Counted from the first letter of the stretch, positions 1 through 20,300 are shown. The stretch is 20,300 bases of DNA from Candidatus Nanohaloarchaea archaeon (GCA_046539225.1 JBKHHG010000013.1:1-20300); one strand, 5' to 3'. Program-made: numbers and translations. The notes: generated by a model from the letters alone, not told the origin.

Positions 1-363
1 AGAGGAGAAGGCCTGGAAAAAGAAGCTGAAGAAGTCAGGGAAAAATTTGAGGAGTTCATGGCCGATGATCTTAACACTGCGAAGGCGAAACAGGCCTTGC
101 TCAGGTTTGCGGGAGAGGTCAACTCGAGAGGCGAGGCCTCAGAGGAAGTTGGAGAGACGCTGAGAAGGCTTTCAAATGTTCTCGGTGTCGATGTCAGGTC
201 TTCGGCGACTGAGCGAGAGGCCTCGATGGCCGACCTTCTGCTTGACCTGCGGGATGAGGCCCGTGAACGAGAGGATTACAAGGCCTCGGATTATATCAGG
301 GATAGGCTTGAAAGTCTTGGTTTCGATGTGGAAGATACGGGGGAAGGATCGGAATGGTTTTAG
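1..363 (+). CDS. cysS: Cysteine--tRNA ligase, C-terminal part (5' end outside window)
   Basis: Frame is open from base 1 (RGEGLEKEAEEVREKFEEFMADDLNTAKA...). F..M.DDLNT..A matches the CysRS DALR-like region and R.EAR...DY..SD.IRD.L...G..VED...G..W matches the anticodon-binding domain. Confidence 0.9.
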   Translation, partial: RGEGLEKEAEEVREKFEEFMADDLNTAKAKQALLRFAGEVNSRGEASEEVGETLRRLSNVLGVDVRSSATEREASMADLLLDLRDEAREREDYKASDYIRDRLESLGFDVEDTGEGSEWF

Positions 364-402
364 AAGATAGAGAAGAAAAGGAAGTCAGGCCTTGAAGAAG
401 GT

Positions 403-540
403 TTACTGGTCTTCAAGTTCTTTCTTTTTCTGTTGTTTTCTGTCGGGTTGTTCCTCGAAGATTTCCTCTGCTCTTTCATCGGTTATGCCAAGCATTTCTT
501 TTGCCTTCTGTTTCTGATCATCTGCCTTGTTTCTTGCCAT
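403..540 (-). CDS. Small charged hypothetical protein, 45 aa (below ORF-track cutoff)
   Basis: ATG at 540 to TAA at 403 gives MARNKADDQKQKAKEMLGITDERAEEIFEEQPDRKQQKKKELEDQ. TATA-like TTTTTTAAC at 570-562 lies about 25-30 nt upstream, as for other genes here. It fills the gap between cysS and the DHH gene. Confidence 0.65.
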   Translation of the reverse strand: MARNKADDQKQKAKEMLGITDERAEEIFEEQPDRKQQKKKELEDQ

Positions 541-572
541 AACCCGGGTTTGTAGGCCTATGTTAAAAAAGC

Positions 573-1664
573 CTATACTTTTTCCAGAAGGTTCTGCTTG
601 AACTCTTCGTAGTACTCTTCAGGCATGGAGGCGCCGGCGGCTTTTCTGTGGCCTCCGGCCTCGGCTCCTTCCTCAACGGCTTTTTCAGGCAGGGAGGCCT
701 CCATGACTTCTCCAAGGTCGACGCGGCCGCTCTGGCACCTGGCCGAGATATTTACTTCTTCATCCTTCTGCACCACGAGATGTATCCATTCAGGGGTCTT
801 GGTTGACATGTTGGTGGAGATCGAGGAGGTAATGTTGAACTCTGAGTCGATCTCGAAGAAGATCACCATCTTCTCCCTGTTGATCTCTCTTTCCTCCTCG
901 TAGTTCTCCACCGCATCATTGAACTCGTCCTGCATCTCGATGTAGACCTCGTATACCTGGCGGTACTCTTCCTGGGCCTCCAGCTCCATCAAATCCTCTG
1001 ACTTCATCAAGGCCTGGTAAGCCAGTTTCGCGAAATGCGTGGAATCCCTGTAAGGCTTTATGTTCAGGACTGAAGCGTATCTGCCGTACTCACAGTTTTT
1101 CGCCAGTTCATGCTGTGAAAGCTCCTCCGGCAGGTATTTTTCATAGTCTTCCTCAAGTTTTTCGAAGAGGCCCGGGCATGAGTCGACGCCGAAGTCCTGG
1201 ATGACTCCCATTCCAGCTATCCATCTTACACCATCCTCGAGTCCAAACTCTGAGGCGATATCGAGGCAGATCTTGCTGCACGGTACGTAGACATCAGCTT
1301 TGAACTCTCGCGGGTTCACAAAGTCGACTTCTGGAACCCTGTCGAAATCGTGGTGGTCAACGACGAGAACATCGATGAACTCGTTCAGTTCTTCAAGCTC
1401 TTCTGCCTTCAAATTAAAGTCCAGGACTATCAGTTTATCGAAGTCATGGAGGCCCTCCTTCTCCTCTTCCGAGAGATGGTAAGCCCTCTCTAAAGGAATG
1501 GAAACATCATCCCCCTCTTCGCCGCGTTCCTGCCTCAAGATCTTCGAGATTATGGCCGCGGAGGCAACACCGTCCATATCCCAGTGATGAAGGATCTTAA
1601 CCCTTTCATCTTCATCAATATCTTTCAAAAACTTTGTCGCCGGCTTTAAATTCTTTTTCTCCAT
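573..1664 (-). CDS. DHH/DHHA1 family phosphoesterase (archaeal RecJ-like)
   Basis: Motifs HHWDMDG, IVLDF, VVDHH, GVIQDFG, ISAR and AGGHRKAAG. Start moved to ATG 1664 (MEKKNLK), which has SD-like GAGGTG at 1676-1671 and avoids overlap with ileS. Confidence 0.85.
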   Translation of the reverse strand: MEKKNLKPATKFLKDIDEDERVKILHHWDMDGVASAAIISKILRQERGEEGDDVSIPLERAYHLSEEEKEGLHDFDKLIVLDFNLKAEELEELNEFIDVLVVDHHDFDRVPEVDFVNPREFKADVYVPCSKICLDIASEFGLEDGVRWIAGMGVIQDFGVDSCPGLFEKLEEDYEKYLPEELSQHELAKNCEYGRYASVLNIKPYRDSTHFAKLAYQALMKSEDLMELEAQEEYRQVYEVYIEMQDEFNDAVENYEEEREINREKMVIFFEIDSEFNITSSISTNMSTKTPEWIHLVVQKDEEVNISARCQSGRVDLGEVMEASLPEKAVEEGAEAGGHRKAAGASMPEEYYEEFKQNLLEKV

Positions 1665-1674
1665 TGGAGACACC

Positions 1675-4600
1675 TCAGTTAGGCCTCTCAAAGGAGAAAC
1701 GAAGTTTTCTATCCCTGAACCCGACTTCGCCAGAGTGTTCAAAGTCTTCAGACCCGTAACCTATGCTGGAGACGTTCATCCTGTTCCTCAACTGTTCCTC
1801 TCTCGATTTTACCGGTTGGAAGTCTCCTTCAAACATTATATCGACTTCATCCTCTACTTCAAGGCCTGCGTCTTTTCTCTTCTGCTGTACCGCACGAATT
1901 ACTTCTGCGACAAAGGCCTCTTCCTCGAGCTCGGGCGTCATCTCATCATCGAGGTAGACTGTTCCCTCGGAGAACTCTTCTCCCTCCATTCCTTCTGGTA
2001 CATGAGCTCTGACCTCGAACATTTCAGCCCCAAGTTTTTCTCCGGCGAGTTCGACTTCAAGGCCTTCTTCTATCTTTTCAGCTATTTTTCCGTGGTCTTC
2101 CCGGGCCAAGGCCTGTTCTACCTCTCCTACTTTGTCGCCGAGTTCTGGACCTGCGTTGGCGTAGTCAAGCTTGACCTCGTAGTCGAGTTCAACTTTTTCG
2201 AATTCAACCTGTTTGGCGTTTAAACGGTCTTTCAGAAGGCCTTCCAGGTTTTTAACTGCTTCCTCTACTTCTTCCGATCCGCTGACCGTCACCTTCTTGA
2301 CTGGATGCCGGAGCTTTACCCCGTTCTCCTGTCTCAGCCTGGCGACAGCCTCCTCAATATCCTGAAATACCTCCATGCTTCTCTCAAGGCCTGGATCCAT
2401 CATTTCTTTCTCCGGCTCTGGATAGGCCTCGAAATGGATTGAATTCTTTTCTCCCTCGTAGAGATGCTCTGTAAGGAATGGTATAAAGGGTGAAAGCAGT
2501 TTCAGTAGTTCAGAGGATACGTACCTCAGCGTCCATTCCGCTGCTTTCCTGTCCTCTCCGTTGTAGCCTGGTTTCAGTCTGTCGCGGATCATTTTGATGT
2601 ATCCACGGGATAGATCATTCTTGGTAAAGTCCTCGATCAGTTGAGCAGCTTTGAACCCTTCAAAGTTTGGCTCGGTCGAGTGTTCACGGGATTTCTCTAC
2701 TACAGTATTCAGACGGGATAGAATCCATTCATCCTCTATTTCAAGGTTTTCAGGCCTTTCTCTCTGCTCGGTGTAGGTGTCTCTGTAGTTGTACGTGTTC
2801 CAGAGGATGTTCATGAACTCCATGTTTTCATCCATTCCTTCCCAGGTAAAGTTGAGGTCGTCGCTTGGATCATTAGAGAGCAGGAAAAACCTGAGCACGT
2901 CTCTACCGTATTTCTCGATGGCTTCCTCCGGAGACACGACTATTCCACGGGATTTCGACATCTCTTCTCCGTCGAGCATGACTTTTCCGTGGTAGATCAC
3001 GTTGTCGAAAGGCCTCTGCTCAAATGTCATATGCGATGTGATGAACTGGCTGTTCCACCATCCACGGATCTGGTCAAAACCTTCTATCTCAAGATCTACC
3101 GGGTTGTGATCCTCAAAGCTGAAATCTATCTCTTCATTCTTCAGTGAGGCCCATGGTGCAACGCCTGAGTCAAACCATACGTCAAGCACATCCGGAATTC
3201 TCTCCATTTCTCCGCCGCAGTCGCACTCCAGTGTTACCTCATCGATGAAAGGCCTGTGAAGGTCGTCAGGAACTTCCGGAAGCTCGGATCTATCTCCTAT
3301 AACTCTTGTACTGTCGCATTCCCTGCACTCCCAGATTGGTAATGGGATTCCCCAGTAACGCTGCCTGGAGACAGGCCAGTCGCCGAGCTGCTCCAGCCAT
3401 TCATCGAACTTCTGGCCTGACCAGTCAGGAACCCAGTTGATCTCCTCGTTGCTTTCCAGCAGTTTGTCACGGAACTTTGTCGCGCCGAAGAACCACTGAG
3501 GGATAGAAAGCTGCAGGAGGGGGGTGTCGCATCTCCAGCATTTCGGGTACTCGTGCGAAATCTCTCCAGAGTATAGAAGGTCTCCGCCGAGATCATCCAT
3601 GATCTCGCTGTCAGCATCTTTAACGTAGAGGCCTTCATACTTTCCAGCCTGGTCTGTAAACCTTCCTTCAAGATCCACGGGAGAGATCATTTCAAGGCCT
3701 TCATCCTGGCCTACCTCGTAATCCTCTTTTCCGTGGCCCGGCGCGGAGTGGACAAGGCCTGTACCACCCTCAAGATCCACGTATCTCTCGGTTAATACGA
3801 CTCTTCCCTGCACATCTTCCTGGACCGGAACTTCGTCCTCCAGCGGATGGCTGTACTCAAGGCCTTCAAACTTTGAACCCGATCTTTCTTCAGTTATCTC
3901 ATAGTCTTCCTCGTCGAATCCAAACTTCTCCATGATCTGATCCACGAGCTCGGAAGCCATCCAGATCTTCCGGTCGTTGAACTCCACCAGCGAGTATTTG
4001 AACTCGGGATGCATCATCACGGAGGTGTTTGCAGGCAATGTCCATGGAGTAGTTGTCCAGATCAAGAGTTCCTCCTCGGAGTCCTGTAGCTGCATCGCGA
4101 CGTAGACCTCTGGATCCTCGAGATCCGTATACTCGATCTCGTTGTAAGCTACAGCGGTCTCGCAACGGGTGCAGATATGCACAGGGTACTGATCCTCGTA
4201 TAGAAAGCCTTTGTCGTAGGCCTCCTTGAATGTCTGCCACGCACCCTCGATATAGTAGTCATGGTAAGTTACATACGGATTCTCGAAGTCCATCCAGACC
4301 CCCATATCCTCGAAATCCTTGTTCATCTGATCGATATGTCCATCGACAAAGGCCTGGCACTCATCGATAAAGTTCTCTACTCCAAACTCTTCAATCTCTT
4401 TCTTGGAGTTGAAGCCTTTCTCCTCCTCGACCTTGTTTTCTATCGGAAGGCCGTGTGTATCGTAACCCGGCTGGGCGTGGACGTTGTAGCCAAGCTTCCT
4501 GTGCAGCCGGATGTAGAAGTCTTTCAGTGTTTTGTTCAGGCCTGTCCCCATGTGAATGTTTCCTGAGGCATATGGAGGCCCGTCAAGAAAGTAGAATCTT

Positions 4601-4701
4601 TCGCTGTCCTTGTTAAGTTCTAAAGCCTTTTTTCGTGTATAATTATTTTTCCACTGCTGTTTAACCTGTTTTTCGACTCTGTTAGGATTGTACTCTGTCA
4701 T
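1675..4701 (-). CDS. ileS: Isoleucine--tRNA ligase (archaeal/type 2)
   Basis: GPPYASGNIHMGT (HIGH region), WTTTPWTLPAN and GTGLVHSAPGHG (CP1 editing domain), SRQRYWGIPLP, DVWFDSG, DQIRGW, EMSKS; 1008 aa. Confidence 0.97.
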   Translation of the reverse strand: MTEYNPNRVEKQVKQQWKNNYTRKKALELNKDSERFYFLDGPPYASGNIHMGTGLNKTLKDFYIRLHRKLGYNVHAQPGYDTHGLPIENKVEEEKGFNSKKEIEEFGVENFIDECQAFVDGHIDQMNKDFEDMGVWMDFENPYVTYHDYYIEGAWQTFKEAYDKGFLYEDQYPVHICTRCETAVAYNEIEYTDLEDPEVYVAMQLQDSEEELLIWTTTPWTLPANTSVMMHPEFKYSLVEFNDRKIWMASELVDQIMEKFGFDEEDYEITEERSGSKFEGLEYSHPLEDEVPVQEDVQGRVVLTERYVDLEGGTGLVHSAPGHGKEDYEVGQDEGLEMISPVDLEGRFTDQAGKYEGLYVKDADSEIMDDLGGDLLYSGEISHEYPKCWRCDTPLLQLSIPQWFFGATKFRDKLLESNEEINWVPDWSGQKFDEWLEQLGDWPVSRQRYWGIPLPIWECRECDSTRVIGDRSELPEVPDDLHRPFIDEVTLECDCGGEMERIPDVLDVWFDSGVAPWASLKNEEIDFSFEDHNPVDLEIEGFDQIRGWWNSQFITSHMTFEQRPFDNVIYHGKVMLDGEEMSKSRGIVVSPEEAIEKYGRDVLRFFLLSNDPSDDLNFTWEGMDENMEFMNILWNTYNYRDTYTEQRERPENLEIEDEWILSRLNTVVEKSREHSTEPNFEGFKAAQLIEDFTKNDLSRGYIKMIRDRLKPGYNGEDRKAAEWTLRYVSSELLKLLSPFIPFLTEHLYEGEKNSIHFEAYPEPEKEMMDPGLERSMEVFQDIEEAVARLRQENGVKLRHPVKKVTVSGSEEVEEAVKNLEGLLKDRLNAKQVEFEKVELDYEVKLDYANAGPELGDKVGEVEQALAREDHGKIAEKIEEGLEVELAGEKLGAEMFEVRAHVPEGMEGEEFSEGTVYLDDEMTPELEEEAFVAEVIRAVQQKRKDAGLEVEDEVDIMFEGDFQPVKSREEQLRNRMNVSSIGYGSEDFEHSGEVGFRDRKLRFSFERPN

Positions 4702-4734
4702 GTATAAATCGGTGAAGCAGAAAGTTAAAAGAGT

Positions 4735-5088
4735 TCACCACATGTTTCTCGCCTTTCTGTAACCGAGTGCGCCTATACCGCCCAGGACAAGGCCTCCGAG
4801 ACCGTACTTTGCAGCGGACGAAATATTTTCAAGAGACTCTTCCGAGTACTCCGGCAGCTCGAGTTCAATATCTTCAAGGCCTGACTCCTCTTCGTCGAGA
4901 TACGTGTTTACCGCGTCGAGGCCTGTCTCCGCTGTCTCCATGATGTCGGATGCTTCCTCTGTCCCGATCTTGCTTGCGCCGTAGATCAGGGATGCGCCTC
5001 CAAGAATGGCGAACGGCGTTGACAGGGTTCCAAGGCCTAAAGCCCCTGTTTTCGAGGCCGCGGACCTTCCATAGTTTAAAACAGACAT
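4735..5088 (-). CDS. Hypothetical membrane protein (two Gly-rich hydrophobic segments around an acidic loop)
   Basis: 117-aa ORF filling the gap, with hydrophobic stretches at both ends and a basic C-terminus (YRKARNMW). Confidence 0.7.
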   Translation of the reverse strand: MSVLNYGRSAASKTGALGLGTLSTPFAILGGASLIYGASKIGTEEASDIMETAETGLDAVNTYLDEEESGLEDIELELPEYSEESLENISSAAKYGLGGLVLGGIGALGYRKARNMW

Positions 5089-5120
5089 ATTTGTTACTTG
5101 TTAGTCAATATTTATATGTT

Positions 5121-5720
5121 TTACTGCCAGTGCACTGACTCTCCTCTTTTCGTCAGGTCGACTTCCTCAACATCTTCCGCTTCATCTTCTTTCTCTTCTT
5201 CAGGCTGTGAAACGTTTTCTTCAGGCCTCTCATCTCTGTGAAGCTGTGAATCCGGATGCGGCTCTTTCTTCTCCTTCCTGAACTCGAAGCTCACCGAGTC
5301 AAGACTGCTCAACGTATCTTTGAAGTACTCCTCCGTCTGCAGATCCTCTCGCTGCGGGAAGATCGCCCCTATCGGTGTACCGGCGTTCTCCTCTTCCCGG
5401 AAACGCGGAAAGACCTGTATGTAGGCGTGCGGCAGCATCTGGCCCGCGGCCTCCTCCACATTCATCGCTATAGATAGACCGTCGGCGTCAAGGCCTTCAA
5501 TCTCTTTCTCCATTACCTCCCGCAGAAGCTTCATCGCCTCCATGTACTCATCGGGAGAGAAATCCATGACCGACTCTGTATGTTCTTTGGGTACGATGTT
5601 GGCGTGGCCTTTCGCCCTCGGCTGCGGGTACTCCAGCCAGGCATAAAAGTTGTCGGTCTCGCCTATAATATTCAGCTGTTCCGGGTTCTCCATGAGCTGG
5701 CAGAAAGGACAGTCTGTCAT
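5121..5720 (-). CDS. HIT-fold protein with degenerate histidine triad and acidic C-terminal tail
   Basis: DCPFC, KGHANIVPKEH and AGQMLPHAYIQVFPRF follow the HIT layout, but HxHxH reads HAYIQ. Confidence 0.85.
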   Translation of the reverse strand: MTDCPFCQLMENPEQLNIIGETDNFYAWLEYPQPRAKGHANIVPKEHTESVMDFSPDEYMEAMKLLREVMEKEIEGLDADGLSIAMNVEEAAGQMLPHAYIQVFPRFREEENAGTPIGAIFPQREDLQTEEYFKDTLSSLDSVSFEFRKEKKEPHPDSQLHRDERPEENVSQPEEEKEDEAEDVEEVDLTKRGESVHWQ

Positions 5721-5757
5721 AAAGAAAAGTTAGAGATATGGAAAGTTAAATTTACCC

Positions 5758-6039
5758 CTACATAGGAGGCATTTCATCGTCCGGCATACCTGGTTCAGGC
5801 CTCGGCTCCTCAACGAAATCATCTCCAGACCCCTGGACCTCATCCATCAAATCCCTGACCTCGTTAATCAGTTTCTTCAGGCTGGACTCAGAATCAGGCT
5901 CCTGCAGCTCCTGCTCAAGCCTTGCAATACTTGACTCCAGTTCCCTCGCAGACTTCCCAGAACTTCCAAAGGTTTCCAGAGTCATCTCAGCCGAGTCAAG
6001 AACGGCTTCAGCCTCCTCTTTACGTTCTTTTAACCCCAT
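5758..6039 (-). CDS. Acidic helical/coiled-coil hypothetical protein
   Basis: Start moved to ATG 6039, which has TTTATATA about 23-30 nt upstream and GGTGA just upstream. Heptad-like LESSIARLEQEL. Confidence 0.65.
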   Translation of the reverse strand: MGLKERKEEAEAVLDSAEMTLETFGSSGKSARELESSIARLEQELQEPDSESSLKKLINEVRDLMDEVQGSGDDFVEEPRPEPGMPDDEMPPM

Positions 6040-6088
6040 ACCCATCACCGAGGACACATCATATATAAACCTTTCCACAGATCAAAAC

Positions 6089-7809: not shown

Positions 7810-7899
7810 CGCCAGCGACCGGATTTGAACCGGTGAGGGGCGGGTATGCCCCAGCAGATCTCGAATCTGCCGCGTTCAACCAGACTCCGCCACGCTGGC
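7810..7899 (-). tRNA. tRNA-Ser(CGA), intronless, CCA not encoded
   Basis: Acceptor GCCAGCG/CGCTGGC with G discriminator, anticodon arm GCAGA-TTCGAGA-TCTGC, long variable arm GGGGC-ATACCC-GCCCC, T arm ACCGG-TTCAAAT-CCGGT. Confidence 0.95.
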
Positions 7900-8286: not shown

Positions 8287-8943
8287 ATGCAGTATGATGC
8301 AGTTATTTTTGATATGGATGGTGTGATCCTGGATTCAGGCCTGAACAATTTTCAGTGGATGGATCAGATTCGGCGGAAGAAGGCCTCGCAGCTGGGATAT
8401 GATTACTCTGAGGATGATGCGATCCAGGTGGTGGGTGCCACGCAGATGTCTGAGCTGAAGGAGTTGATGGAGAGGAAAGAGATGTCCTTAAAGGAGGTCA
8501 AGGAGGTGGAGCAAAGGGTTCAGAACGCCAAGATCAGCCTGATCGAGCACGGGGCCATAAGGCTTTTCCCGGAGACTGAAAAAGTTTTAAGGGGGCTTGA
8601 CAGGCCTGTAGGCCTTGCGACCAACTCTCCGCGGAACACGGCCAGGTTCACGCTCCGGTACTTCGGCATCATGGATCTCTTCGATTCTTTCCAGGCCCTG
8701 CCTCTAAACGATCTTGAAAGCTACGTTGGAAGGAAGAAGCCTCATCCCTTCCTGCTGAACAACGCGATTGAAGAGCTTGAAGCCGAGAACCCTGTGATGG
8801 TGGGCGACACAAGGACCGATGTGAAGGCGGCGGAGAACGCGGGAATTGACTCTGTACTTGTTGAAACCTACTCGAAACACGACCACCTTGAACCCACGCA
8901 CAGGATCAGAAATATCGCCGAACTTAATTCATTGCTGAAATAA
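8287..8943 (+). CDS. HAD-superfamily hydrolase (phosphoglycolate phosphatase-like, subfamily IA)
   Basis: FDMDGVILDS (motif I), ATNS (II), KKPHP (III), VGDTRTD (IV). Confidence 0.92.
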   Translation: MQYDAVIFDMDGVILDSGLNNFQWMDQIRRKKASQLGYDYSEDDAIQVVGATQMSELKELMERKEMSLKEVKEVEQRVQNAKISLIEHGAIRLFPETEKVLRGLDRPVGLATNSPRNTARFTLRYFGIMDLFDSFQALPLNDLESYVGRKKPHPFLLNNAIEELEAENPVMVGDTRTDVKAAENAGIDSVLVETYSKHDHLEPTHRIRNIAELNSLLK

Positions 8944-8995
8944 GGCCTCTGTTACCACCAAAAAGTTAAAAAGAACTGTCTTTTCTTTTCTCTTT

Positions 8996-9688
8996 ATGAC
9001 TGAAGAAAACCAGGAATCTGAAGCCGCGTCCGAGGAAGAAGCCGAAACGCCTGAAGAGGATGAGGCCTCCGAAGAGGTAGAAGAGTCGCAGCCAGAAGAA
9101 TCTGATTCTGAACCTGAGGAAGGCCTCGAGGAGTTAAAAGACGCGATGCTTGAAAACTCGGAGGAGTACTACGGCTCCGTAGAGGAGCTTTACGCCGATG
9201 CAGAGTCCCTGGATAGTATAGACCAGTACTTTGACAGACCTCAGGGGTTTGATCCGGGTGAGGAAGGCCTTGAAGGCTATCTGGCGGTGGAAGACACCGA
9301 AACACTTCTGATAGGAGATAAGACCGCGGAGGATCTTGACGCGGAGCTTGAAGCCGTTGACGAAGCCCTGGAGTCCGACGAAGGCCTTATGGAAAGCCTG
9401 ATGGATAAACTCAAGAGCTACACCGATATACTCAGGCCTGAGGACAGGTGGGACTGGACGATGTACGGAGGTGCCGCACTCGGAGTTGGAGGCCTTGTGC
9501 TGGGTTCGCCTCTCGCCCTGGGAACAGGCCTATTAATCGAAGGCCTGGGTGTTGCTGGAAGCCTTTACAGCCGGGATGAACCTGTTCAGGAAGAAAGTGA
9601 AGATGAAGAAGATTACGATCTTGGAATGCTTGACGAGATCTCGGGTTACAAGGTCCGGGTCATCGACGAGGAAACCGTACCAGAGTAA
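8996..9688 (+). CDS. Very acidic hypothetical membrane protein
   Basis: 230 aa, E/D-rich, with a Gly/Leu hydrophobic hairpin (GGAALGVGGLVLGSPLALGTGLLIEGLGVAGSL). AAAAGTTAAAAA about 30 nt upstream. Confidence 0.75.
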   Translation: MTEENQESEAASEEEAETPEEDEASEEVEESQPEESDSEPEEGLEELKDAMLENSEEYYGSVEELYADAESLDSIDQYFDRPQGFDPGEEGLEGYLAVEDTETLLIGDKTAEDLDAELEAVDEALESDEGLMESLMDKLKSYTDILRPEDRWDWTMYGGAALGVGGLVLGSPLALGTGLLIEGLGVAGSLYSRDEPVQEESEDEEDYDLGMLDEISGYKVRVIDEETVPE

Positions 9689-9724
9689 GGCCTACATAAA
9701 AAATTCGCATCCCGATTCTCGAAC

Positions 9725-10708
9725 ATGACTGGCAAAAACCAATGCAGTAAATGCGACAATGAAGCAGTAATCTTCCGGGATCACGAGGGGAGAGGCCTCT
9801 GCAAAAAACATTTCTCTATCGACATCAACAAGAAGGTGAAGCAGACCGTCCGGAAAGGCGACATGGTCAACTCCGGCGACACGATAGCAGTAGGCCTCTC
9901 CGGAGGTAAAGACTCGGCGGTGATGCTGGAGCAGCTTGTTGAAATATTCGGCGACAGGCCTGACATCGAGATAATCGGAGTCGCAGTACATGAAGGAATC
10001 GACGAGTACCGGGATGAATCAATCTCCGCGGCTGAAGAACTCTGCGAAGAACTCGGTGTCGATCTCAAAGTCGGAAGATACAGCGACTACTACGACCTGA
10101 AGATGGACGATGTCGCGGACGCGGGAGAAAAAGGCAACTGCACATACTGCGGTATCCTGAGACGCGACATCCTGAACCGGCTCTGCCGCGAGGTCGACGC
10201 CGACAAACTCGCGATAGGCCACAACCTTGACGACGAGGCCCAGAGCATCCTGATGAACCATATCAAAGGCGACATGAACCGGATGGCAAGAATAGGCCCA
10301 AAGAAAGACCCTGTAGACCACGAAAAATTCGTGCCGAGGATCAAACCTTTACGGGACCTGATGGAAAAAGAGATCGCCCTCTACTCAAGGCTTCACAACC
10401 TCGGCGTCATCGACCGTTGCCCGCATGTGGAAGAAGGCGCGCTCAGGCCTATGGTGAAATCCTTCATCAACAAGCTGGAGTCAGAGATGCCGGGCATCAA
10501 GTACTCAATAGTCTCACAGGGCCGGGAAATCTCAGACCTTGTAGAGCAGGACATCGACTGGAAAGACGACAACAACCAGATAGAAACATGTGAAAGATGC
10601 GGAGAACCATGCAGCGGAGGCCTCTGCCGCAAATGCCAGCTCCTCGACGAGTTGAAGACCGCGGCCGACAGTTCAGATAAGCACGGCTTCAGGATGGAAC
10701 AGGAATAA
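9725..10708 (+). CDS. ttuA: tRNA 2-thiolation protein TtuA/Ncs6 (TIGR00269-like)
   Basis: N-terminal CxxC...CxxH zinc finger, SGGKDS PP-loop, CTYCGILRR, GHNLDDEAQS, RIKPL, CPH, C-terminal CERCG...LCRKC. Confidence 0.9.
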   Translation: MTGKNQCSKCDNEAVIFRDHEGRGLCKKHFSIDINKKVKQTVRKGDMVNSGDTIAVGLSGGKDSAVMLEQLVEIFGDRPDIEIIGVAVHEGIDEYRDESISAAEELCEELGVDLKVGRYSDYYDLKMDDVADAGEKGNCTYCGILRRDILNRLCREVDADKLAIGHNLDDEAQSILMNHIKGDMNRMARIGPKKDPVDHEKFVPRIKPLRDLMEKEIALYSRLHNLGVIDRCPHVEEGALRPMVKSFINKLESEMPGIKYSIVSQGREISDLVEQDIDWKDDNNQIETCERCGEPCSGGLCRKCQLLDELKTAADSSDKHGFRMEQE

Positions 10709-11734: not shown

Positions 11735-11777
11735 ATAAACCCGCAATCTTTAGTTGAATTAGAGAAGTAAAAACAAG

Positions 11778-11886
11778 TGGCGACGTCCTGAGTGTCCCGC
11801 CAAAGGCAGTACTGCTCAGATCGCTGAGGGACTTTACTTCCGTGTTCGGAATGGGTACGGGTGTAACCCCCTCGCTATGGTCGCCA
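11778..11886 (-). rRNA. rrf: 5S rRNA (stand-alone, about 109 nt; ends approximate)
   Basis: Reverse complement TGGCGACCATAGCGAGGGGGTTACACCCGTACCCATTCCGAACACGGAAGTAAAG...AGTACT...GGGA...GTCGCCA contains the universal CCCAT.CCGAAC.C.GAAGT motif and helix I TGGCGAC/GTCGCCA. Confidence 0.93.
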
Positions 11887-11910
11887 ACAAGGAAGAAGTA
11901 GGCCTGAACT

Positions 11911-14218: not shown

Positions 14219-14758
14219 TCAAACTTTTGTAGTATGACCTAACCGTTTTTGGATATATTCCCAGTTATCGTCTGTACGGCCTAAAAAAAGACTTGCTAAC
14301 TCCTCGCCGTTTTTCGAAGCTGTAACCTTGACGCTTTCATGACTTCTTTCTTCATCAGGCCTAATGTCGGCGACAACCTCGTAACTGGCTTCTCCATCTA
14401 CAGGCAAGACATACCTTCTGAAGCCATCTTTTAGGTCGTCTTTCCTTCCCAGAAAAGGTTCGATCCCGGAGGCAGGATAATCACCTGACTCCAATCTTTC
14501 AGTAGTATCCGATTTTTCAATCCCTGTCACTGTCTCCGCAATAAAACTTTCTCCCTGGAAACTGTAGCCACTGCTTGCCTCACCGCCGTAAATACATAGA
14601 AGCGGCTTAGGCTTAATTCCTCTCTCTTTCCGAGAGAACGGTAAATTAAAGACTACTCCGTAAAGGCCTGAAGCATCTTCTATATCCGATACTCTGTAGG
14701 CCTTGACATCTTCACGTTCAGGTTTAATAGGCTCCTGACCGGCTATAGGTAGAGTCAC
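14219..14758 (-). CDS. Hypothetical protein
   Basis: 179-aa ORF with GTG start filling the gap, ATTTAAG about 25-30 nt upstream; no family recognised. Confidence 0.65.
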   Translation of the reverse strand: MTLPIAGQEPIKPEREDVKAYRVSDIEDASGLYGVVFNLPFSRKERGIKPKPLLCIYGGEASSGYSFQGESFIAETVTGIEKSDTTERLESGDYPASGIEPFLGRKDDLKDGFRRYVLPVDGEASYEVVADIRPDEERSHESVKVTASKNGEELASLFLGRTDDNWEYIQKRLGHTTKV

Positions 14759-14796
14759 TACCTGAAAATTACAACCAACTCTTAAATCTTTGAACT

Positions 14797-15363
14797 CTAC
14801 AACTCATCCAGTTTCTGCTGGCCCGACTCTTCTTTACCAAAGGCCTTTCTCAGGTCTTTCTCCAGTTCCGGTGTCTTTGAGCGGTCGTACAGGGTTGCGG
14901 CAGGATGGAATACCGGCATGATTTTCTGGCCTTTTCTCGAGAAGATACGTCCGTGTATCTGGCTTATACCCTTTTCTGTATCCAGGATGTGGCGGGATGG
15001 AAAGTTACCTAAAGTAATTATAATCTCGGGATTCACATCCTTGATCTCTTCTTCAAGCAGCGGCGCCCAGGCCTCTATCTCCTTCTTTTTCGGGTCTCGG
15101 TTGTCCGGAGGCCTGACCTTTACAAGGTTTGTGATGTAGAGCTCAGAGCGTTCCACGCCGATGTCATGTAGAATGTCGTTCATTTTTTCTCCGGCTCTTC
15201 CGACGAACGGTTCTCCCTGTTCCACCTCGTCAGCGCCTGGTGCCTCGCCTACAAGCATGTAATCGGTTTCTTCAAGGCCTACAGCCGGGACGAAACGTTC
15301 CTCGTCAAAGTGGTTGGGGTGAAGAGTGTCGAAGAAGTCCTGATACTTTTCACGGAACTCCAT
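14797..15363 (-). CDS. udg: Uracil-DNA glycosylase, family 4
   Basis: VGEAPG..E...[34 protein letters not shown]. Confidence 0.92.
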
Positions 15364-15441
15364 AGATACTTCACCGCTGGAAAATTTTTTACCGTTACGG
15401 GCAGCGGTTTATGTCTAATGTTTTGAAAGTTGAATGTTTCC

Positions 15442-15894
15442 ATGGATTTCGATGAGTGGGAAAAAGCACTGGAGAAAACCGGGGAAAGTATCGGCTTCTC
15501 CGGTATCAGGCCTTACCAGGAGATTGACCGGTTTGAAAATATTTCCCTTGAGGAGTACTACGCGGCCTCTACAGTCCTTACATTCCTGAAGTACTCGGAA
15601 ACAGCCGGGGCAGAGAAAGAGGTGGAGACCGCGGTCAGAGGAGTGGAAAAGTTCCGTGATCGAGGCCTCATAGGAGAGAAAGTAGGCGAATTTGCGGGAG
15701 ACATGGAGAACTCTCCGGTGTTCCTGGGCTGCGCCGAAAGAGATCCGTATATTCCCAAAAAGCGGGTGGACGAGACGGAAGAAGTATTCCAAGGCCTTAA
15801 CGCAGAAGTAGAAAAATACATTTTCGAGGGCTCTCAGCACGGTATCACAGGCCATGAAATAGAGAAGGCCTCAGAGCTGATAGAAACTCTATAA
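15442..15894 (+). CDS. Protein with the C-terminal half of a phospholipase/carboxylesterase (alpha/beta hydrolase); possibly chimeric or a remnant
   Basis: GLIG...GD...PVFLGC..RDPYIP..RV.ET..VF..LNAEV...IFEG..HGI...EI matches the family C-terminus with the Asp and His of the triad. The N-terminal HGRG and GFSQG motifs are absent. ATG 15442 has TTTATG about 30 nt upstream. Confidence 0.65.
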   Translation: MDFDEWEKALEKTGESIGFSGIRPYQEIDRFENISLEEYYAASTVLTFLKYSETAGAEKEVETAVRGVEKFRDRGLIGEKVGEFAGDMENSPVFLGCAERDPYIPKKRVDETEEVFQGLNAEVEKYIFEGSQHGITGHEIEKASELIETL

Positions 15895-15916
15895 CCCTGT
15901 TATTTTTTAGGCTGAG

Positions 15917-16585
15917 TTGACAAACCTTGGACAGGTGATTTATCTGGGGGTCGACAGGCACGAGTTTCAGACAAGGTTCCTGAACCATCTTATCAGTTTT
16001 CTTGACTCCAAAGAGGAGATAGTGGAGGAGAAAACCCGTTTCAAGCTGTACATGGAGGGGCAGCTCGGATCCTACAACAAGCAGAGCTTCAGAGAGGTAA
16101 AGGCCTCGCGCCCTTTGAAAGAGCTGAAGCAATCAGACTTAGAAAACAAGAAAGAAGAGTTTCTTGAGGCATTAAAGATCTCTCTTATACTGTTGAAGAC
16201 CCAGGGCCACAATGAGATAGCTTCAGAGCTGATCTCCAAGTCAAAGGAGAAACAGGAGAATTTGGAAGGATTCAATGTTTCGCCGGAGCTTGAACAACTG
16301 GAGTCCTCCTTCGCAAAGCTGAATCTTCAGTCTAACCTTGAAGATGTCTCTTACTTTATCTACGTTGAACGCGGAGGTTCATGGCATAGAATTCTGGAGC
16401 ACGAAGGAGATACCGAGATAGAACTCCCTGCGGCAAAGTATAGAGTGAAATGCGTCAGGTCCCGCAGTTACATCCAGAGAGAAGTCGAACTTACAAAAGA
16501 CACTGAGGTTATCTTCGTATTCGAAGAAGGCCTAAACGAGATAGAGGAGGAATACCTGCTATCAAAGTTGAACCCTTTCTCCTAA
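15917..16585 (+). CDS. Hypothetical protein (helical N-part, beta-rich C-part)
   Basis: 222-aa ORF with TTG start; start uncertain and no family recognised. Confidence 0.6.
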   Translation: MTNLGQVIYLGVDRHEFQTRFLNHLISFLDSKEEIVEEKTRFKLYMEGQLGSYNKQSFREVKASRPLKELKQSDLENKKEEFLEALKISLILLKTQGHNEIASELISKSKEKQENLEGFNVSPELEQLESSFAKLNLQSNLEDVSYFIYVERGGSWHRILEHEGDTEIELPAAKYRVKCVRSRSYIQREVELTKDTEVIFVFEEGLNEIEEEYLLSKLNPFS

Positions 16586-16611
16586 TTTCTCAGGCCTGAA
16601 AAAAGAGGGTT

Positions 16612-16947
16612 CTATTCCGAGGTTTCCTCCATGTTTGCTTTAATTTCTTCTTCGTCCATCTCTGACTTAGGTTCGTCCGGTACAGCAGGTTCCTCCTCGA
16701 TGAAGTCGTATTTTTTACTTGGAGGCCTCGTATCTTTTTCAGGTTCTTCCTCGTACTCCATGGCAAGGCCTTCTGACTCCAGAACTTCGAAAAATTCATC
16801 CCAGGAAATTTCCTCCAGCTTCTCACCTTCTTCGAAGTCGACTCTGAGTTCGGCAAAGGTTTCAGGAACTTTTGAAGGTGTTCCCCCGTGTTCAGTGATC
16901 CAGTCCTCAATCTCTGTGTGATCTCGAGTAGTAATAGTATCATTCAT
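16612..16947 (-). CDS. Small acidic conserved hypothetical protein (TT.DH..I..W....GG.P...LR.DF...LEEISWDEFF family)
   Basis: The pattern resembles a widespread uncharacterised small-protein family. GGAGGT SD upstream; directly follows 16960-17223. Confidence 0.75.
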   Translation of the reverse strand: MNDTITTRDHTEIEDWITEHGGTPSKVPETFAELRVDFEEGEKLEEISWDEFFEVLESEGLAMEYEEEPEKDTRPPSKKYDFIEEEPAVPDEPKSEMDEEEIKANMEETSE

Positions 16948-16959
16948 TTCTAAAACCTC

Positions 16960-17223
16960 CTAAGACTGTATCTTTTCCACTATCTTTACCGCCTGATCCC
17001 GGGCCTTTTCCTCGCCGGCCTCCTTCTTTATCAGGACGCTCTGAATAGTCCAGTCATCCTCATCTTCAAGCTTTCCCATCCTTACCTCGCTTCCCTCGGA
17101 TACAGAGGTGGCGGCGTTTTCAGCCCAGTCAGGCGTTCTAATCGCATCGAACTTGTCCGGATCATTAAACCTGACGTGGTAGTATTCTCCCTCAAGCTCA
17201 ACTTTTTCTACATCTGGAACCAT
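16960..17223 (-). CDS. Small conserved hypothetical protein (YYHVRF.DPD.F..IRTPDWA)
   Basis: Start moved to ATG 17223 (MVPDVEK), which has TTTTTTAG about 23-30 nt upstream. Resembles haloarchaeal hypothetical proteins from memory, unverified. Confidence 0.75.
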   Translation of the reverse strand: MVPDVEKVELEGEYYHVRFNDPDKFDAIRTPDWAENAATSVSEGSEVRMGKLEDEDDWTIQSVLIKKEAGEEKARDQAVKIVEKIQS

Positions 17224-17313
17224 ATTACATCTCTGACCCCGCATCTAAAAAAACAAAATTACAGGCCTAAACATTCAACACTCCTCAACCAAAATCCTCA
17301 AAACTGAAAAGCA

Positions 17314-17339
17314 GAAGTCCCGACTCCAGGATTCGAACC
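17314..17339 (-). repeat. Direct-repeat copy of the tRNA-Tyr 3' end plus trailer
   Basis: GAAGTCCCGACTCCAGGATTCGAACC is identical at 17314-17339 and 17388-17413 (26 bp, period 74). Confidence 0.95.
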
Positions 17340-17391
17340 CTACGAAAATCGGAGATTTTCTGGAGGATATCGAATCCGAATTAAATTGAAG

Positions 17392-17465
17392 TCCCGACTC
17401 CAGGATTCGAACCTGGGACAATCCGCTCTACAGGCGGACGCTCTGCCAGACTGAGCTAAGTCGGG
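17392..17465 (-). tRNA. tRNA-Tyr(GUA), intronless, CCA not encoded
   Basis: CCCGACT/AGTCGGG acceptor (archaeal C1-G72, A73), D arm GCTC..GAGC, anticodon arm TCCGC-CTGTAGA-GCGGA, T arm CCAGG-TTCGAAT-CCTGG. Confidence 0.96.
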
Positions 17466-17507
17466 GATCTCTCTGTCTTAGCCAGGTAAGAAGCGTGAGA
17501 GCTTCGT

Positions 17508-17523
17508 ACTGAGCTAAGCCGGG
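17508..17523 (-). repeat. Direct-repeat copy of the tRNA-Tyr 5' end
   Basis: ACTGAGCTAAGCCGGG matches 17450-17465 (ACTGAGCTAAGTCGGG) at 15/16, period 58. Confidence 0.85.
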
Positions 17524-17620
17524 TTTTTGCTCATCAAGAGCAAGGCCTCGGACTGAGCAACGTGTTCAGGCCTGTTTGAAGGCCTGTGTTAAATGTAAGG
17601 GGTTGAAAGTTTTTTTATAC

Positions 17621-18949
17621 TTACTCGGGTTTGAACTCTGCGTTGATGGTTTTCGAGGTATCGAGTACGTGTTCTCCGTCTCTGAGGACTGCGGGGTCGA
17701 GCTCTACTCCTTCCTCTACTTCTACCTTGGGCTCGATGCTGTACCGGAAGATTCTCTGATCGCCGGGGTGAAGATCCTGAATCCACCAGCGTAGCTCCGC
17801 GCCATCTCCCGTCTGTTTTACCTCTGGATCGGCCATGTCAAACTTCGAGTTCAATCCGGCTATATTCGGTATAAAGTCTTCAAGAAGAACATCACCATAG
17901 CTCTGGGAGCTCGAGTTTTCGACCTGTAAAGTGATGTCAAGGCCTTTGTCTGTTTTCTTAACGGTTTTCTCAACGCTTACAGTTGAAGTAATCCTTTTCA
18001 ACGCGACGAGGCCTATCAAAAGCGCTAAAACACCTGAAACAGGAATCCAGTAGTCAGTCCTGACCCTGAGCTCCATCTCCTCTCCTGGTTGAAGGTTTTC
18101 GCTCCAGCTGTAAACCGTGCTGGAACCGTTATCGGTTTGAACGGCTTCAGGAGCATAAACAACCGGGGAAATGTATGAAGGTTTCTCGATCGAGTAGTTA
18201 AACGTTGATTCGACGTTGCCGGTGTTTCTAACGTTCAGGACATCGTTGACCACGAGAAGCATGTCTTCCCTGCTCCTGTTCTTTTCAAAGGACTCGACTT
18301 CTTCTACCTGAATGGACTCTGTGTACTCTCTGCCGTTAAGGCCTATCGACAGGGTTTTCCTGCCAGGTGATTCATACCTTGGGACTTCAAAAGTCGTGGA
18401 AACCCTTCTCTCTCCGCCAGGAACTATAGGCCCGAGCTCCACAGTCTTTGTAGAATTCAAAAGGTTTATCTCGACGTCTCTGTATTCTGATGTCGAGGAG
18501 TCGACGTTTCTGAACGTTAAACCTATTTCAATAGTTTTTCCAGGTTTGTAGCTTTCGTTTTTGTCCAGGTTAAGAAGGTTAAGGCCTCTATCTCTCTGAA
18601 CATTGAAGCTGAAACTGTCTCTAACTTCTTCTCCTTCTTCGTTGCGTATCACAAAGTCTGTACGGTAGTTTCCACGTATCGCTGATTCTTCAGGGTTTAT
18701 CTCGACATTGAAGTAAGAATTGGAAGAGTTCAGGGTTTTGGAGTCGCTGTATGAGTACCACCGGCTTCTGTGGTAGTCAAGAATACTTAAATCGTATTTT
18801 TGCGGAGATCCAGAGTTTTCAACGTTTAAACGGATCTCGGCAGAGTCATCCATAGAGGCCTGAGGATCTAAAGCTTCGGAAGTTACCTGAAAACCCGATG
18901 CGAGGCCTACAAGGATGAGAAGTGCCGGGATCAGCGCCGTTTTCTTCAT
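17621..18949 (-). CDS. Exported/membrane-anchored cell-surface protein with Ig-like (CARDB/DUF11-like) domains
   Basis: Signal-peptide-like MKKTALIPALLILVGLASG, beta-rich repeats (L.VEN.G, V.NTGN, L.PGE), a TM helix (YWIPVSGVLALLIGLVALKR) and a further beta domain. Many NxS/T sequons. Confidence 0.75.
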   Translation of the reverse strand: MKKTALIPALLILVGLASGFQVTSEALDPQASMDDSAEIRLNVENSGSPQKYDLSILDYHRSRWYSYSDSKTLNSSNSYFNVEINPEESAIRGNYRTDFVIRNEEGEEVRDSFSFNVQRDRGLNLLNLDKNESYKPGKTIEIGLTFRNVDSSTSEYRDVEINLLNSTKTVELGPIVPGGERRVSTTFEVPRYESPGRKTLSIGLNGREYTESIQVEEVESFEKNRSREDMLLVVNDVLNVRNTGNVESTFNYSIEKPSYISPVVYAPEAVQTDNGSSTVYSWSENLQPGEEMELRVRTDYWIPVSGVLALLIGLVALKRITSTVSVEKTVKKTDKGLDITLQVENSSSQSYGDVLLEDFIPNIAGLNSKFDMADPEVKQTGDGAELRWWIQDLHPGDQRIFRYSIEPKVEVEEGVELDPAVLRDGEHVLDTSKTINAEFKPE

Positions 18950-18987
18950 GCATAAGTCTTTGACGGGTCTGCATAAATAATCTTGGT

Positions 18988-19794
18988 TTATACACCTGTC
19001 GCTGCACGGAGCAAAACCCGTATACCAGTCGCAAATCCTACAGTGTAAAGTCCGAGCAACAGGATCGCCCTCCAGCTCTCATCCATATCAAAGTAGATCT
19101 TCAACGCCAGTAAAAGAACCACGCATTTTACACCGAGAAATCCCATGGGTCCGAAAACGTCGACAACTGTAGAGGTCAATAGCTGACGGGGCTCAAATCC
19201 CTGGCTCACAGCATACATTGAGGAAAAGGCCTCAAAGAACTGGCTGGCGACAGCCAAAACAAGCGGTAGGACCCCTAGTCTTTTTCCTGTGAAGACGAAG
19301 AAGTAGAGGCCTGAAACCGCTGCCGTTGCCGCAGACACAGCGATCAAAGGCGCAGGATTTACAGCAGGCGACATGTAAACCACCGCGGAAAACACCGCGA
19401 CCGCCAACACGGATAAAAGATATACAGCTTTTCTGTCAAGGCCTCTGTACAGCATTAAAGTTACCGCGGCCGCCATCCAGGCATGGATCACCGGAGTAAT
19501 CAACAATACCTCCACGAAAAGAGGGAAAGAAAACGCGTCCTGAGCAAATCTTAGAACCCCGGCGAGAAACACAACCGGTAGAAGCTTCAATGCAGTTTCA
19601 GGCCTCAACTCTATCTCTTTCTCCCGGAAAAACCTGTGAAGTATGTAGACACCGAGGACAGCCGTAAAACCCCAGAGAACAGTATTGTACATATTGTAAC
19701 CAGCCAAGGCCTCAACACCTTTCCAAGTCGCTGAACCGTTCAAGGCCTCGGCTACTATCGGGCCAGCGATGTACTGCCACAGGAACTCCAGCAT
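18988..19794 (-). CDS. DUF63-like polytopic membrane protein
   Basis: FLWQYI.GPIVA.A...GYN.YNT, G.LR...D, LLITP, and C-terminal GFATGIR..LR...GV. Confidence 0.75.
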   Translation of the reverse strand: MLEFLWQYIAGPIVAEALNGSATWKGVEALAGYNMYNTVLWGFTAVLGVYILHRFFREKEIELRPETALKLLPVVFLAGVLRFAQDAFSFPLFVEVLLITPVIHAWMAAAVTLMLYRGLDRKAVYLLSVLAVAVFSAVVYMSPAVNPAPLIAVSAATAAVSGLYFFVFTGKRLGVLPLVLAVASQFFEAFSSMYAVSQGFEPRQLLTSTVVDVFGPMGFLGVKCVVLLLALKIYFDMDESWRAILLLGLYTVGFATGIRVLLRAATGV

Positions 19795-19872
19795 ATAGAG
19801 CTATTACTGCTGTAGATTGAAAAAGAGAGAGGCCTCCGGAAAAGTTTTCTTACTTGCCATCAATCCAAGTTT

Positions 19873-20094
19873 ATGGAGCTTCCATCATTCAGCTTCAGAG
19901 AGTTCTACCGAGGATTCGAAAAAAGAAAATACCTGACATACCACGGCCGCTGGCAGCTCTCCACTCTTGTAATGCTGCTCCCGATGACAGTCCTCGACAT
20001 CTTCAACCTGCCGGTCCAGCTCAACCTTGTAGCGACACAGTTCATCGGCGCCTGTATCTTCTGGTCAATCGATAAAAGAATCTTCAACGACTGA
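19873..20094 (+). CDS. Small two-TM membrane protein (RWQLST...IG..IF..ID..IF; GtrA-half-like)
   Basis: 73 aa with two hydrophobic helices; family assignment is tentative. Confidence 0.6.
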   Translation: MELPSFSFREFYRGFEKRKYLTYHGRWQLSTLVMLLPMTVLDIFNLPVQLNLVATQFIGACIFWSIDKRIFND

Positions 20095-20099
20095 ACCCT

Positions 20100-20300
20100 T
20101 CAAAAATCCAGTATCTCCTTGAAAAAATCGTAGGCCTCGCCACCTGACCCACTGTACCCGGTCTCAGGCCAGAGATCCAAGTTTTCGCCTTCTTTCCTCG
20201 GCACCAGATGAAAGTGGAAATGGCTGATTGACTGCTGCGCCGACTCCCCGCTCGCATTCAACAGGTTGACACCGTCAATCTCACCCTGTTCCCTCAGCCT
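20100..20300 (-). CDS. HIT family hydrolase, C-terminal part (5' end outside window; not in ORF track)
   Basis: Reverse frame from 20300 reads RLREQGEIDGVNLLNASGESAQQSISHFHFHLVPRKEGENLDLWP...EILDF*, with an intact HxHxH triad and TGA at 20102-20100. Confidence 0.9.
   Translation of the reverse strand, partial: RLREQGEIDGVNLLNASGESAQQSISHFHFHLVPRKEGENLDLWPETGYSGSGGEAYDFFKEILDF

Follow-up and report, generated by a model that had tools for sequence, protein, structure and literature searches.

The 20,300-bp stretch of DNA from Candidatus Nanohaloarchaea archaeon analysed here (GCA_046539225.1, JBKHHG010000013.1:1-20300; hereafter the window) raises the question of why a single six-base palindrome, AGGCCT, recurs along it once per 172 bp on average. 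The window is the whole of contig C13 of a genome designated G000 (606,781 bp, 38 contigs, 82% complete). An earlier reading made from the sequence alone, here called the original prediction, had reported about 118 AGGCCT sites where about 5 were expected, and had proposed a highly iterated palindrome (HIP) comparable to the cyanobacterial HIP1. The exact count is indeed 118, spread across the whole window from position 9 to a last site at 20132-20137, against 5.75 ± 2.46 in 100 dinucleotide-preserving shuffles (maximum 13; 0 of 100 reached 118). The genome-wide check that it called for showed that the enrichment is not confined to the window: G000 contains 2,850 copies, 20.25 times the number expected from base composition, which ranks AGGCCT first among all hexamers, and every one of the 38 contigs carries it at 1.7-5.8 sites/kb. 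The runner-up palindrome, AAGCTT, has an observed/expected ratio (O/E) of only 2.3. Our preferred reading, to which we assign a probability of roughly 0.45, is that AGGCCT is a HIP-like palindrome kept up by a continuing transmission bias linked to recombination or repair and exerted by a putative DNA-reading protein.

The unit of this signal is the full hexamer and not GGCC, because AGGCC is overwhelmingly followed by T (5,700 times, counting both strands, versus 299-438 times for each other base). G000 contains 4,549 GGCC tetramers, 63% of them inside AGGCCT, and GGCC outside AGGCCT is not enriched. Variants that differ from AGGCCT at one base occur at 0.85-1.63 of expectation at all six positions, with slightly higher values for transitions; they show no depletion and no bias toward the outer positions. 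The flanks of the motif are weakly palindromic, with T favored at -3 and -4 and avoided at -1, giving an extended consensus of roughly TTnV-AGGCCT-BnAA; this bias is stronger at the 252 purely non-coding sites, where T stands at -3 with a frequency of 0.48 (background 0.28). Flank dialects vary among the lineages that are rich in the motif. G005, a single-contig relative, strongly favors GAGGCCTC and AGAGGCCT (8-mers at 60-62-fold, GAGGCCTC at 62-fold), and G000 uses GAGGCCTC, AAGGCCTT and CAAGGCCT about equally. Spacing of the sites is more even than random in both genomes. Gaps shorter than 30 bp number 167 versus ~309 expected in G000 and 214 versus 374 in G005, and gaps of 400-1000 bp number 294 versus 394 and 643 versus 788, respectively. 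The coefficient of variation of the spacing is 0.95 in G000 and 1.11 in G005, or 0.95 in the latter when 15 gaps longer than 2 kb are left out, compared with 1.01-1.13 for three control hexamers. The position of sites relative to gene starts and stops is nearly flat.

AGGCCT is a DNA-level signal and no by-product of codon or peptide usage, as demonstrated with the 649 open reading frames (ORFs) of at least 90 aa called in G000, which cover 90% of the genome. All three codon phases are used, in agreement with the original prediction. Of the coding sites, 455 read as Arg-Pro (phase 0), 894 as Lys/Gln/Glu-Ala-x (phase 1) and 1,158 as x-Gly-Leu (phase 2), and genes and intergenic DNA alike carry the motif, at 4.59 sites/kb in coding and 5.39 sites/kb in non-coding DNA. 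The intergenic examples that had been listed at 387, 554, 11900, 17543, 17568, 17580 and 19830 do fall outside ORFs; the one placed at 17262 is really at 17263. Synonymous codons were then shuffled within each gene, a null model that keeps the proteins, the dipeptides and the codon usage of each gene (itself inflated by the motif). The enrichment survived this treatment in all frames, with 431 ± 16 coding sites expected against 2,507 observed (88, 170 and 173 expected in phases 0, 1 and 2). Shuffling of codon order yielded 192 sites and uniform synonymous choice 200. Arg-Pro pairs are written AGGCCT in 455 of 553 cases, and 1,282 of 1,687 Gly-Leu pairs start with GGCCT. AGGCCT behaves, as had been proposed, as a highly iterated palindrome that is frame-independent, genome-wide and set at the DNA level.

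A contrary reading, in which the abundance follows from composition, from codon or dipeptide usage, or from an artefact of assembly or binning, can appeal to the common AGG, CCT, GGC, GCC and CTN codons of G000 and to a maximal-order Markov O/E of only 1.11 for AGGCCT. This ratio is a circular measure, since AGGCC and GGCCT, the 5-mers it draws on, are themselves pieces of the motif (6,825 copies). The synonymous-shuffle null described above, the equal density of the motif in non-coding DNA, the unremarkable counts of its one-off relatives and an O/E of 0.72 in 134 kb pooled from motif-poor relatives all speak against this reading, and we consider it already refuted. An assembly artefact is likewise contradicted, as Logan contigs of two runs (X1 and X2) reproduce the window in 30 of 30 bins, several pieces of 1-3.4 kb with 0 differences, and the trait is shared by all 38 contigs and by four single-contig relatives (G005, G010, G055 and G056). 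The two runs are labelled microbial mat metagenome, belong to a study that also includes a hypersaline lake run, and are probably the source samples; they provide an independent assembler, not an independent sample.

Among the 70 genomes of the order, 12 are rich in AGGCCT (2.0-4.7 sites/kb), and all 12 belong to one family, f1: G000, G001, G002 and G004 of genus g1, G010, G045 and G046 of g7, G055, G056 and G057 of g28, and G005 and G059 of g2. The trait varies within genera, being present in 4 of 5 g1 genomes and 2 of 6 g2 genomes. The remaining g1 genome, G003, is intermediate (0.95/kb, O/E 6.8), and the four other g2 genomes (G058, G060, G061 and G062) are at background level together with the remaining 53 of the order. 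No alternate hyper-abundant word was found in the poor relatives G050, G014, G018 and G042 (20-34 kb each). The trait is confined to a subset of species in one family of small-genome DPANN archaea with acidic, halophile-type proteomes (in G000, D+E 18.4% and K+R 11.1%). The closest named record is a Woesearchaeota MAG (37% identity), and a nanohaloarchaeon-like identity was presumed. The one-off variants of G003 had been considered as proof that sites decay there, an argument weakened by the finding that AGACCT already stands at 1.9 in the pooled poor loci.

The degree to which the motif has invaded coding sequence was measured at compatible positions, defined as Arg-Pro, Lys/Gln/Glu-Ala followed by a T-starting codon, or an A-ending codon followed by Gly-Leu. 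Overall ~78% of these peptide-compatible positions are occupied by AGGCCT in G000 (82, 75 and 78% in phases 0, 1 and 2); the corresponding values by phase are 82, 72 and 71% in G005 and 35, 18 and 21% in G003, and only 7 of 184 compatible contexts are occupied in four poor genomes (20 kb each). The contexts themselves are about twice as frequent in G000 as in relatives, at 17.8 per 1,000 codons versus 12.2 in G003 and 7.0-10.2 in the four poor genomes, and 3.9% of all G000 codons are touched by AGGCCT.

The isoleucyl-tRNA synthetase (IleRS) gene of the window illustrates the origin of the sites. It contains 18 copies of AGGCCT, and orthologues 66-74% identical from six AGGCCT-poor genomes contain 0-1. 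At these 18 sites some orthologues keep the same peptide in other codons (ACCGGGCTT against ACAGGCCTG), and at others the peptide differs (QNF>QAF, EDL/YDL>EGL, ESY/EDY>EAY, KP/EP>RP), so that the sites arose through synonymous and amino-acid changes alike. Two IleRS lineages, ~43% identical, circulate in family f1 (loci L067-L084). The G000 enzyme belongs with those of AGGCCT-poor genera (74% identical to G014 and G009), and the congeners G002-G004 carry the other type, which points to xenologous replacement or paralogue sorting. Since this type is foreign to the congeners, whether by transfer or sorting, the gene lineage gained its full motif density en route to G000. A second irregularity concerns G060, which is motif-poor (0.40/kb), yet has an IleRS gene with 8 AGGCCT sites, 80% identical to that of the rich G005, at C13:11020-17079 (L201); that contig is either recombinant or mis-binned.

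Comparison of 339 orthologue pairs between G000 and G005 (64.5% identity) showed that 455 of 1,391 aligned G000 sites are also AGGCCT in G005. We had taken such shared sites as proof of common descent and have withdrawn that argument: among 741 positions where both genomes could host the motif, the fraction occupied in both is 0.614, near the 0.569 expected if the two were independent, and the shared sites therefore reflect parallel saturation more than inheritance. Contexts compatible in G000 only are occupied in 807 of 994 cases (81%). Site density falls with conservation, from 5.3-5.8/kb in genes below 55% identity to G005 to 3.3/kb above 75% (rho = -0.36), and the 16S rRNA gene (G000 C30:4263-5736) has 1 site versus 6.9 expected at genome density. 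Taken together, these results show a strong, still-acting, sequence-specific pressure that turns near-cognate sequence into AGGCCT where protein or RNA function allows, first via synonymous change and then via amino-acid change.

The sole motif-poor stretch of G000, at C24:1-4500 (L039), has 2-3 sites per 3 kb and a G+C fraction of 0.42-0.45. It encodes a family-2 glycosyltransferase and a radical-SAM protein, viperin-like by PADLOC, and was probably acquired recently. Motif-poor windows of G005 include both of its restriction-modification islands, which are low in G+C.

The original prediction had put forward a cognate methyltransferase or Vsr-like nuclease, with methylation-coupled repair around GGCC. 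This proposal gained no support from the free GGCC tetramers or the one-off variants described above, nor from gene content. Six-frame Pfam searches with PF00145, PF01555, PF02384 and PF07669 over 31 genomes, and with PF02086 and PF03852 (Vsr) over 5 rich genomes, revealed no methyltransferase or Vsr family that tracks the trait; the single-contig rich genomes G005 and G010 gave no match to PF00145, PF01555 or PF02086 (C5, N4/N6-beta and Dam-class enzymes). Among the 649 G000 ORFs the (D/N/S)PP(Y/F/W/H) motif occurs in 2, one HemK-like and one without a family, and PCQ in none. PADLOC, run on 647 G000 ORFs, found no methyltransferase or restriction enzyme; its 'type II nicking endonuclease' model had a single match (E=1.1e-9), an EndoIII-like HhH-GPD glycosylase that has a homologue in G003. 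In the rich genome G004 (97% complete), the only such enzyme found was a C5 methyltransferase on a 2.7-kb contig. The HsdM and Eco57I-like N6 enzymes of G005 were rejected, as neither G000 nor G003 has a homologue of them and they lie in the low-GC islands where the motif is sparse. Phosphorothioation and deazaguanine modification were also dismissed, the PADLOC matches 'PbeA' and 'DpdJ' being the XPB and Lhr helicases and 'DndA/SspA' a lone cysteine desulfurase.

A broader screen of gene content compared the 649 G000 ORFs by tblastn with whole G003 (794,531 bp) and G005 (1,046,238 bp). It returned 61 ORFs with a match in G005 and none in G003, most of them housekeeping genes that fall in gaps of the G003 assembly (such as those for ribosomal proteins L2, L3, L4, L23 and S19, methionyl-tRNA synthetase and CTP synthase). 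Three apparently very conserved unknowns were the 16S rRNA gene read as protein. A second PolB, its 211-aa neighbor and RadC were discarded because they are also found in poor genomes, as were a TrmB-like helix-turn-helix protein, HxlR and MazG, and a 403-aa coiled-coil protein, which is present in 38 of 50 genomes, poor ones included. Among G003 orthologues, apparent truncations or pseudogenes were unconvincing and mostly reflected contig ends. Contig C14 of G000 (L029:290-3691) encodes a 1,134-aa protein whose C-terminal region is of the HerA/FtsK ATPase type (PADLOC HerA, E=4.7e-41) and which could be a DNA translocase relevant to DNA exchange.

The only correlate of the trait that we found, and a suggestive one only, is AddAB. 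At G000:C2:27538-34074 (L006:8402-14938) lie genes for RmuC, an AddB-like protein and an AddA-like helicase-nuclease. Pfam identifies a PD-(D/E)XK domain in the AddB-like protein and UvrD plus PD-(D/E)XK in the adjacent AddA-like protein, and RmuC adjoins them. AddAB is a bacterial system, and such an RmuC and AddAB module is notable in a DPANN archaeon. AddB-like proteins were detected in 29 of the 50 genomes of the family: all 12 rich ones, the intermediate G003, and 16 of 37 poor ones. Within g2, both AddB and AddA were found in the rich G005 and G059, and neither was found in the poor G058, G060, G061 and G062 (77-89% complete). No conserved partner gene beside AddAB is common to G000 and G005. 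The original prediction had also mentioned a chromatin-protein binding site, taken up below, and a recombination or uptake signal; recombination gains this weak correlate, and uptake loses support, as ComEC (PF03772) matches 0 of 50 family genomes and DprA (PF02481) only 1 of 50, a poor one.

We infer that the pressure acts as a transmission bias rather than as selection site by site, because conserved and lineage-specific contexts are occupied to the same extent (~80%), amino acids are rewritten, and density is anticorrelated with constraint. Under this preferred reading, AGGCCT would be favored by biased gene conversion, or by biased repair, when genome copies or cells recombine; a dimeric DNA-reading protein would exert the bias, purifying selection would oppose it, and sites would decay after loss of the reader. 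Judged by gene content, the candidate reader would be no recognisable methyltransferase. With AddAB as the sole co-occurring machinery, the leading concrete version is that AGGCCT halts or modulates AddAB end resection and so acts on the archaeal enzyme much as Chi does on the bacterial one, but as a palindrome without orientation. At a break, resection would erase DNA as far as the next AGGCCT, and the gap would be recopied from a sister chromosome copy. Motif-free alleles would thus be replaced more often than motif-bearing ones, long motif-free gaps would be filled first, and the genome would ratchet to near-saturation; AGGCCT might also mark resident DNA as self versus motif-poor viral DNA. 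Even spacing would follow if coverage were selected, and equally if the gain of sites rose in proportion to the motif-free gap being broken up, as this resection-stop model predicts. AGGCCT shares with Chi its shortness, its over-representation in resident DNA and its scarcity in foreign DNA; moreover, AddAB is encoded by every one of the 12 rich genomes and missing from the four poor genomes of g2. The Chi sequences known so far have an asymmetric form, follow the direction of replication and are enriched only a few-fold. AGGCCT differs from them in being palindromic and 20-fold enriched; as its own reverse complement it can have no orientation, and it therefore lacks the asymmetry of Chi. 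On a quick single-gene tree its specificity also does not follow the AddB lineage, and AddAB occurs in poor genomes as well. We regard this specific version as unlikely.

Several observations weigh against the preferred reading of a recombination- or repair-linked bias. No reader protein was found, and the data do not separate drive from selection. Each of the seven gene candidates was disqualified by its distribution. With G000 82% complete, and plasmids being lost from metagenome-assembled genomes, a determinant could be unassembled. AddAB is insufficient, given the 16 poor genomes with AddB, three of which (20-34 kb each) show no other hyper-abundant word, and G003 retains AddAB but has few sites. 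In an AddB tree (quick, single gene) the rich genomes do not form one clade, g28 grouping with the poor G007 and G017, which would imply several gains or many losses. The 12 of 12 co-occurrence carries little statistical weight, because there are about four independent rich lineages and the base rate is near one half. One-off variants are not depleted, whereas classic very-short-patch repair predicts depletion. Finally, 40 listed strain variants (of 117) include 1 within a site versus 1.4 expected, with no sign of protection at this sample size.

An alternative that we hold to be less than probable, but serious, is that each site is selected for a function, AGGCCT being bound by an abundant protein, of chromatin, nucleoid or self-marking type, whose even coverage of the genome is favored. 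The deficit of very short and long gaps, the palindromic flanks (suggestive of a dimer footprint of ~14 bp), a non-coding density essentially no higher than the coding one despite presumably weaker constraint, and the foreign islands without the motif would all suit such a protein, and for HIP1, selection together with nucleoid structure is argued in the available text of Xu et al. 2018. Against this stands the burden placed on selection. Some 2,850 sites 200 bp apart would each have a tiny marginal value, yet ~78% occupancy is reached in a small-genome, symbiont-type organism, and the pressure required far exceeds ordinary codon-usage selection. Occupancy is moreover equal at conserved and lineage-specific contexts, as for a blanket pressure, and no candidate protein tracks the trait, the winged-helix candidates among the 61 screened genes being also present in poor genomes. 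Distinctly improbable, in our view, is methylation-coupled repair after the HIP model of Elhai, in which site numbers are driven up by a methyltransferase for AGGCCT or GGCC acting with a nuclease or glycosylase that corrects mismatches; the enzyme would belong to an unrecognised family or reside on an unbinned plasmid or virus. Switching of the trait within genera fits a mobile determinant, the glycosylase of G000 and the C5 methyltransferase of G004 are conceivable parts of such a system, the model is published for HIP1 and alternate HIPs (Elhai 2015, as far as its available text goes), and StuI-type systems that methylate the very word AGGCCT exist in bacteria according to the accessible part of PMC12128166. 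The negative Pfam, motif and PADLOC searches, the absence of GGCC enrichment outside the hexamer, the unbiased one-off variants and the G003 homologue of the glycosylase oppose it. Restriction-modification targets are normally avoided, and AGGCCT is enriched; unlike in StuI restriction-modification or Dcm-Vsr, no methyltransferase, restriction enzyme or Vsr was found for it by the Pfam searches and PADLOC. Vsr-type repair does raise the frequency of its target word, by about two-fold and not 20-fold.

Preferential import and recombination of motif-bearing DNA, as with the uptake signal sequences (USS) of Pasteurellaceae and the DNA uptake sequences (DUS) of Neisseriaceae, would also spread a motif. 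The AGGCCT sites share the signature of molecular drive with these sequences, which reportedly occur in all frames, alter peptides, are rarer in conserved genes and have AT-rich flanks, as AGGCCT does. Known uptake sequences are nevertheless said to be asymmetric, 9-12 nt long and about five times sparser, whereas AGGCCT is a palindrome of six base pairs, which give little discrimination. HIP1 itself has lately been proposed as an uptake sequence in what is available of GBE 2026. The near-absence of ComEC and DprA from family f1 tells against uptake, but is not decisive, archaeal uptake machinery being poorly known, and we rate this explanation as very improbable.

The relation to HIP1 itself is close in form. 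Like HIP1 (GCGATCGC) and alternate HIPs, AGGCCT is a short, GC-rich, hyper-abundant palindrome found in every frame and in intergenic DNA, with quasi-regular spacing and a lineage-specific presence that includes exceptional strains lacking the palindrome. Unlike HIP1, it is archaeal, a hexamer and not an octamer, and denser at one per ~210 bp. The sources, in their available portions, describe HIP1 as 15- to 300-fold over-represented, conserved between genomes beyond neutral expectation and periodic over 10-90 kb (Xu 2018), as recognised by the methyltransferases DmtA and DmtC (GBE 2026), and as having one-nucleotide deviants biased to outer positions, HIPs in general having a cognate, often orphan, DNA methyltransferase for the motif or its core (Elhai 2015). 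For AGGCCT, by contrast, no cognate methyltransferase was detected with six Pfam families, the motif scan and PADLOC, the one-off variants are not outer-base-biased, and the trait switches on and off within genera. With no methyltransferase detected and without the deviant pattern, AGGCCT is better described as a HIP-like variant than as a member of the HIP class.

We found no description of AGGCCT over-representation in archaea, (nano)haloarchaea or DPANN in open-access papers and preprints, supplements aside. A term search of Elhai 2015 and of the GBE 2026 HIP1 paper gave no mention of archaea, and the motif that a nanohaloarchaeal methylome paper reports, in its accessible text, is GDGcHC (140 copies) rather than AGGCCT. 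The origin of hyper-abundant palindromes has had no settled answer in the HIP1 case for three decades, repair bias, selection on nucleoid structure and an uptake signal still being debated in the available portions of the literature (Elhai 2015; Xu 2018; GBE 2026). AGGCCT adds an independent case from a second domain of life, and a more tractable one, with genomes of 0.6-1.1 Mb, four rich single-contig relatives and on/off variation within genera, where G005 and G059 contrast sharply with G058, G060, G061 and G062, and G002 and G004 with G003. Its apparent lack of a cognate methyltransferase is a difficulty for the leading HIP model. The extent to which a DNA-level pressure has rewritten proteins is itself of interest, given the share of codons touched and the doubled frequency of host contexts, and in practical terms one hexamer will distort binning by Markov models, gene finding and analyses of codon bias in these lineages. 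If the AddAB version is true, Archaea would have their first Chi-like system, which would also be the first with a palindromic signal, and its methylation-free mechanism could be tested on HIP1.

Features of the window are collected in Table 1. Both tRNA genes and the 5S rRNA gene are devoid of the motif, and the densest stretch contains 13 sites, as the original prediction had stated on both counts.

Table 1 AGGCCT sites and associated features of the 20,300-bp window.
Feature	Position	Strand	Remarks
AGGCCT sites, 118	9..20137	.	exact match count
Isoleucyl-tRNA synthetase (IleRS), 18 AGGCCT	1675..4701	-	Pfam tRNA-synt_1, E=1.3e-105
tRNA, AGGCCT-free	7810..7899	-	
Densest stretch, 13 sites in 1,019 bp	8943..9961	.	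mostly within ORF 8996-9688
ORF, 230-aa protein	8996-9688	+	no Pfam family (Pfam search)
5S rRNA, AGGCCT-free	11775..11888	-	nearest sites 11698 and 11900
tRNA, AGGCCT-free	17392..17465	-	
Three AGGCCT within 43 bp	17543..17585	.	intergenic, between tRNA and ORF 17621-18949

The densest stretch is in line with the genome-wide pattern of higher site numbers in less conserved proteins. A strain variant in run X2 abolishes the AGGCCT at 9382 within the ORF of that stretch, through a C>A change at 9385 and a 12-nt deletion at 9386. The first of the two tRNA matches spans 90 nt rather than ~74, which suggests an intron or a long variable arm. Beside the second tRNA gene lies a direct repeat of ~26 nt (17315-17340 and 17388-17413), in which the 3' half of the tRNA is copied ~73 bp away and which may be the remnant of an integration (att) site. 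CTAG has met the opposite fate to AGGCCT in G000: the tetramer is extremely rare (O/E 0.056), and hexamers that contain it are nearly absent from the 607 kb (GCTAGC 3, ACTAGT 5, CCTAGG 8). This scarcity is reminiscent of the CTAG methylation and avoidance that the available text of PMC11001535 reports for haloarchaea and their viruses.

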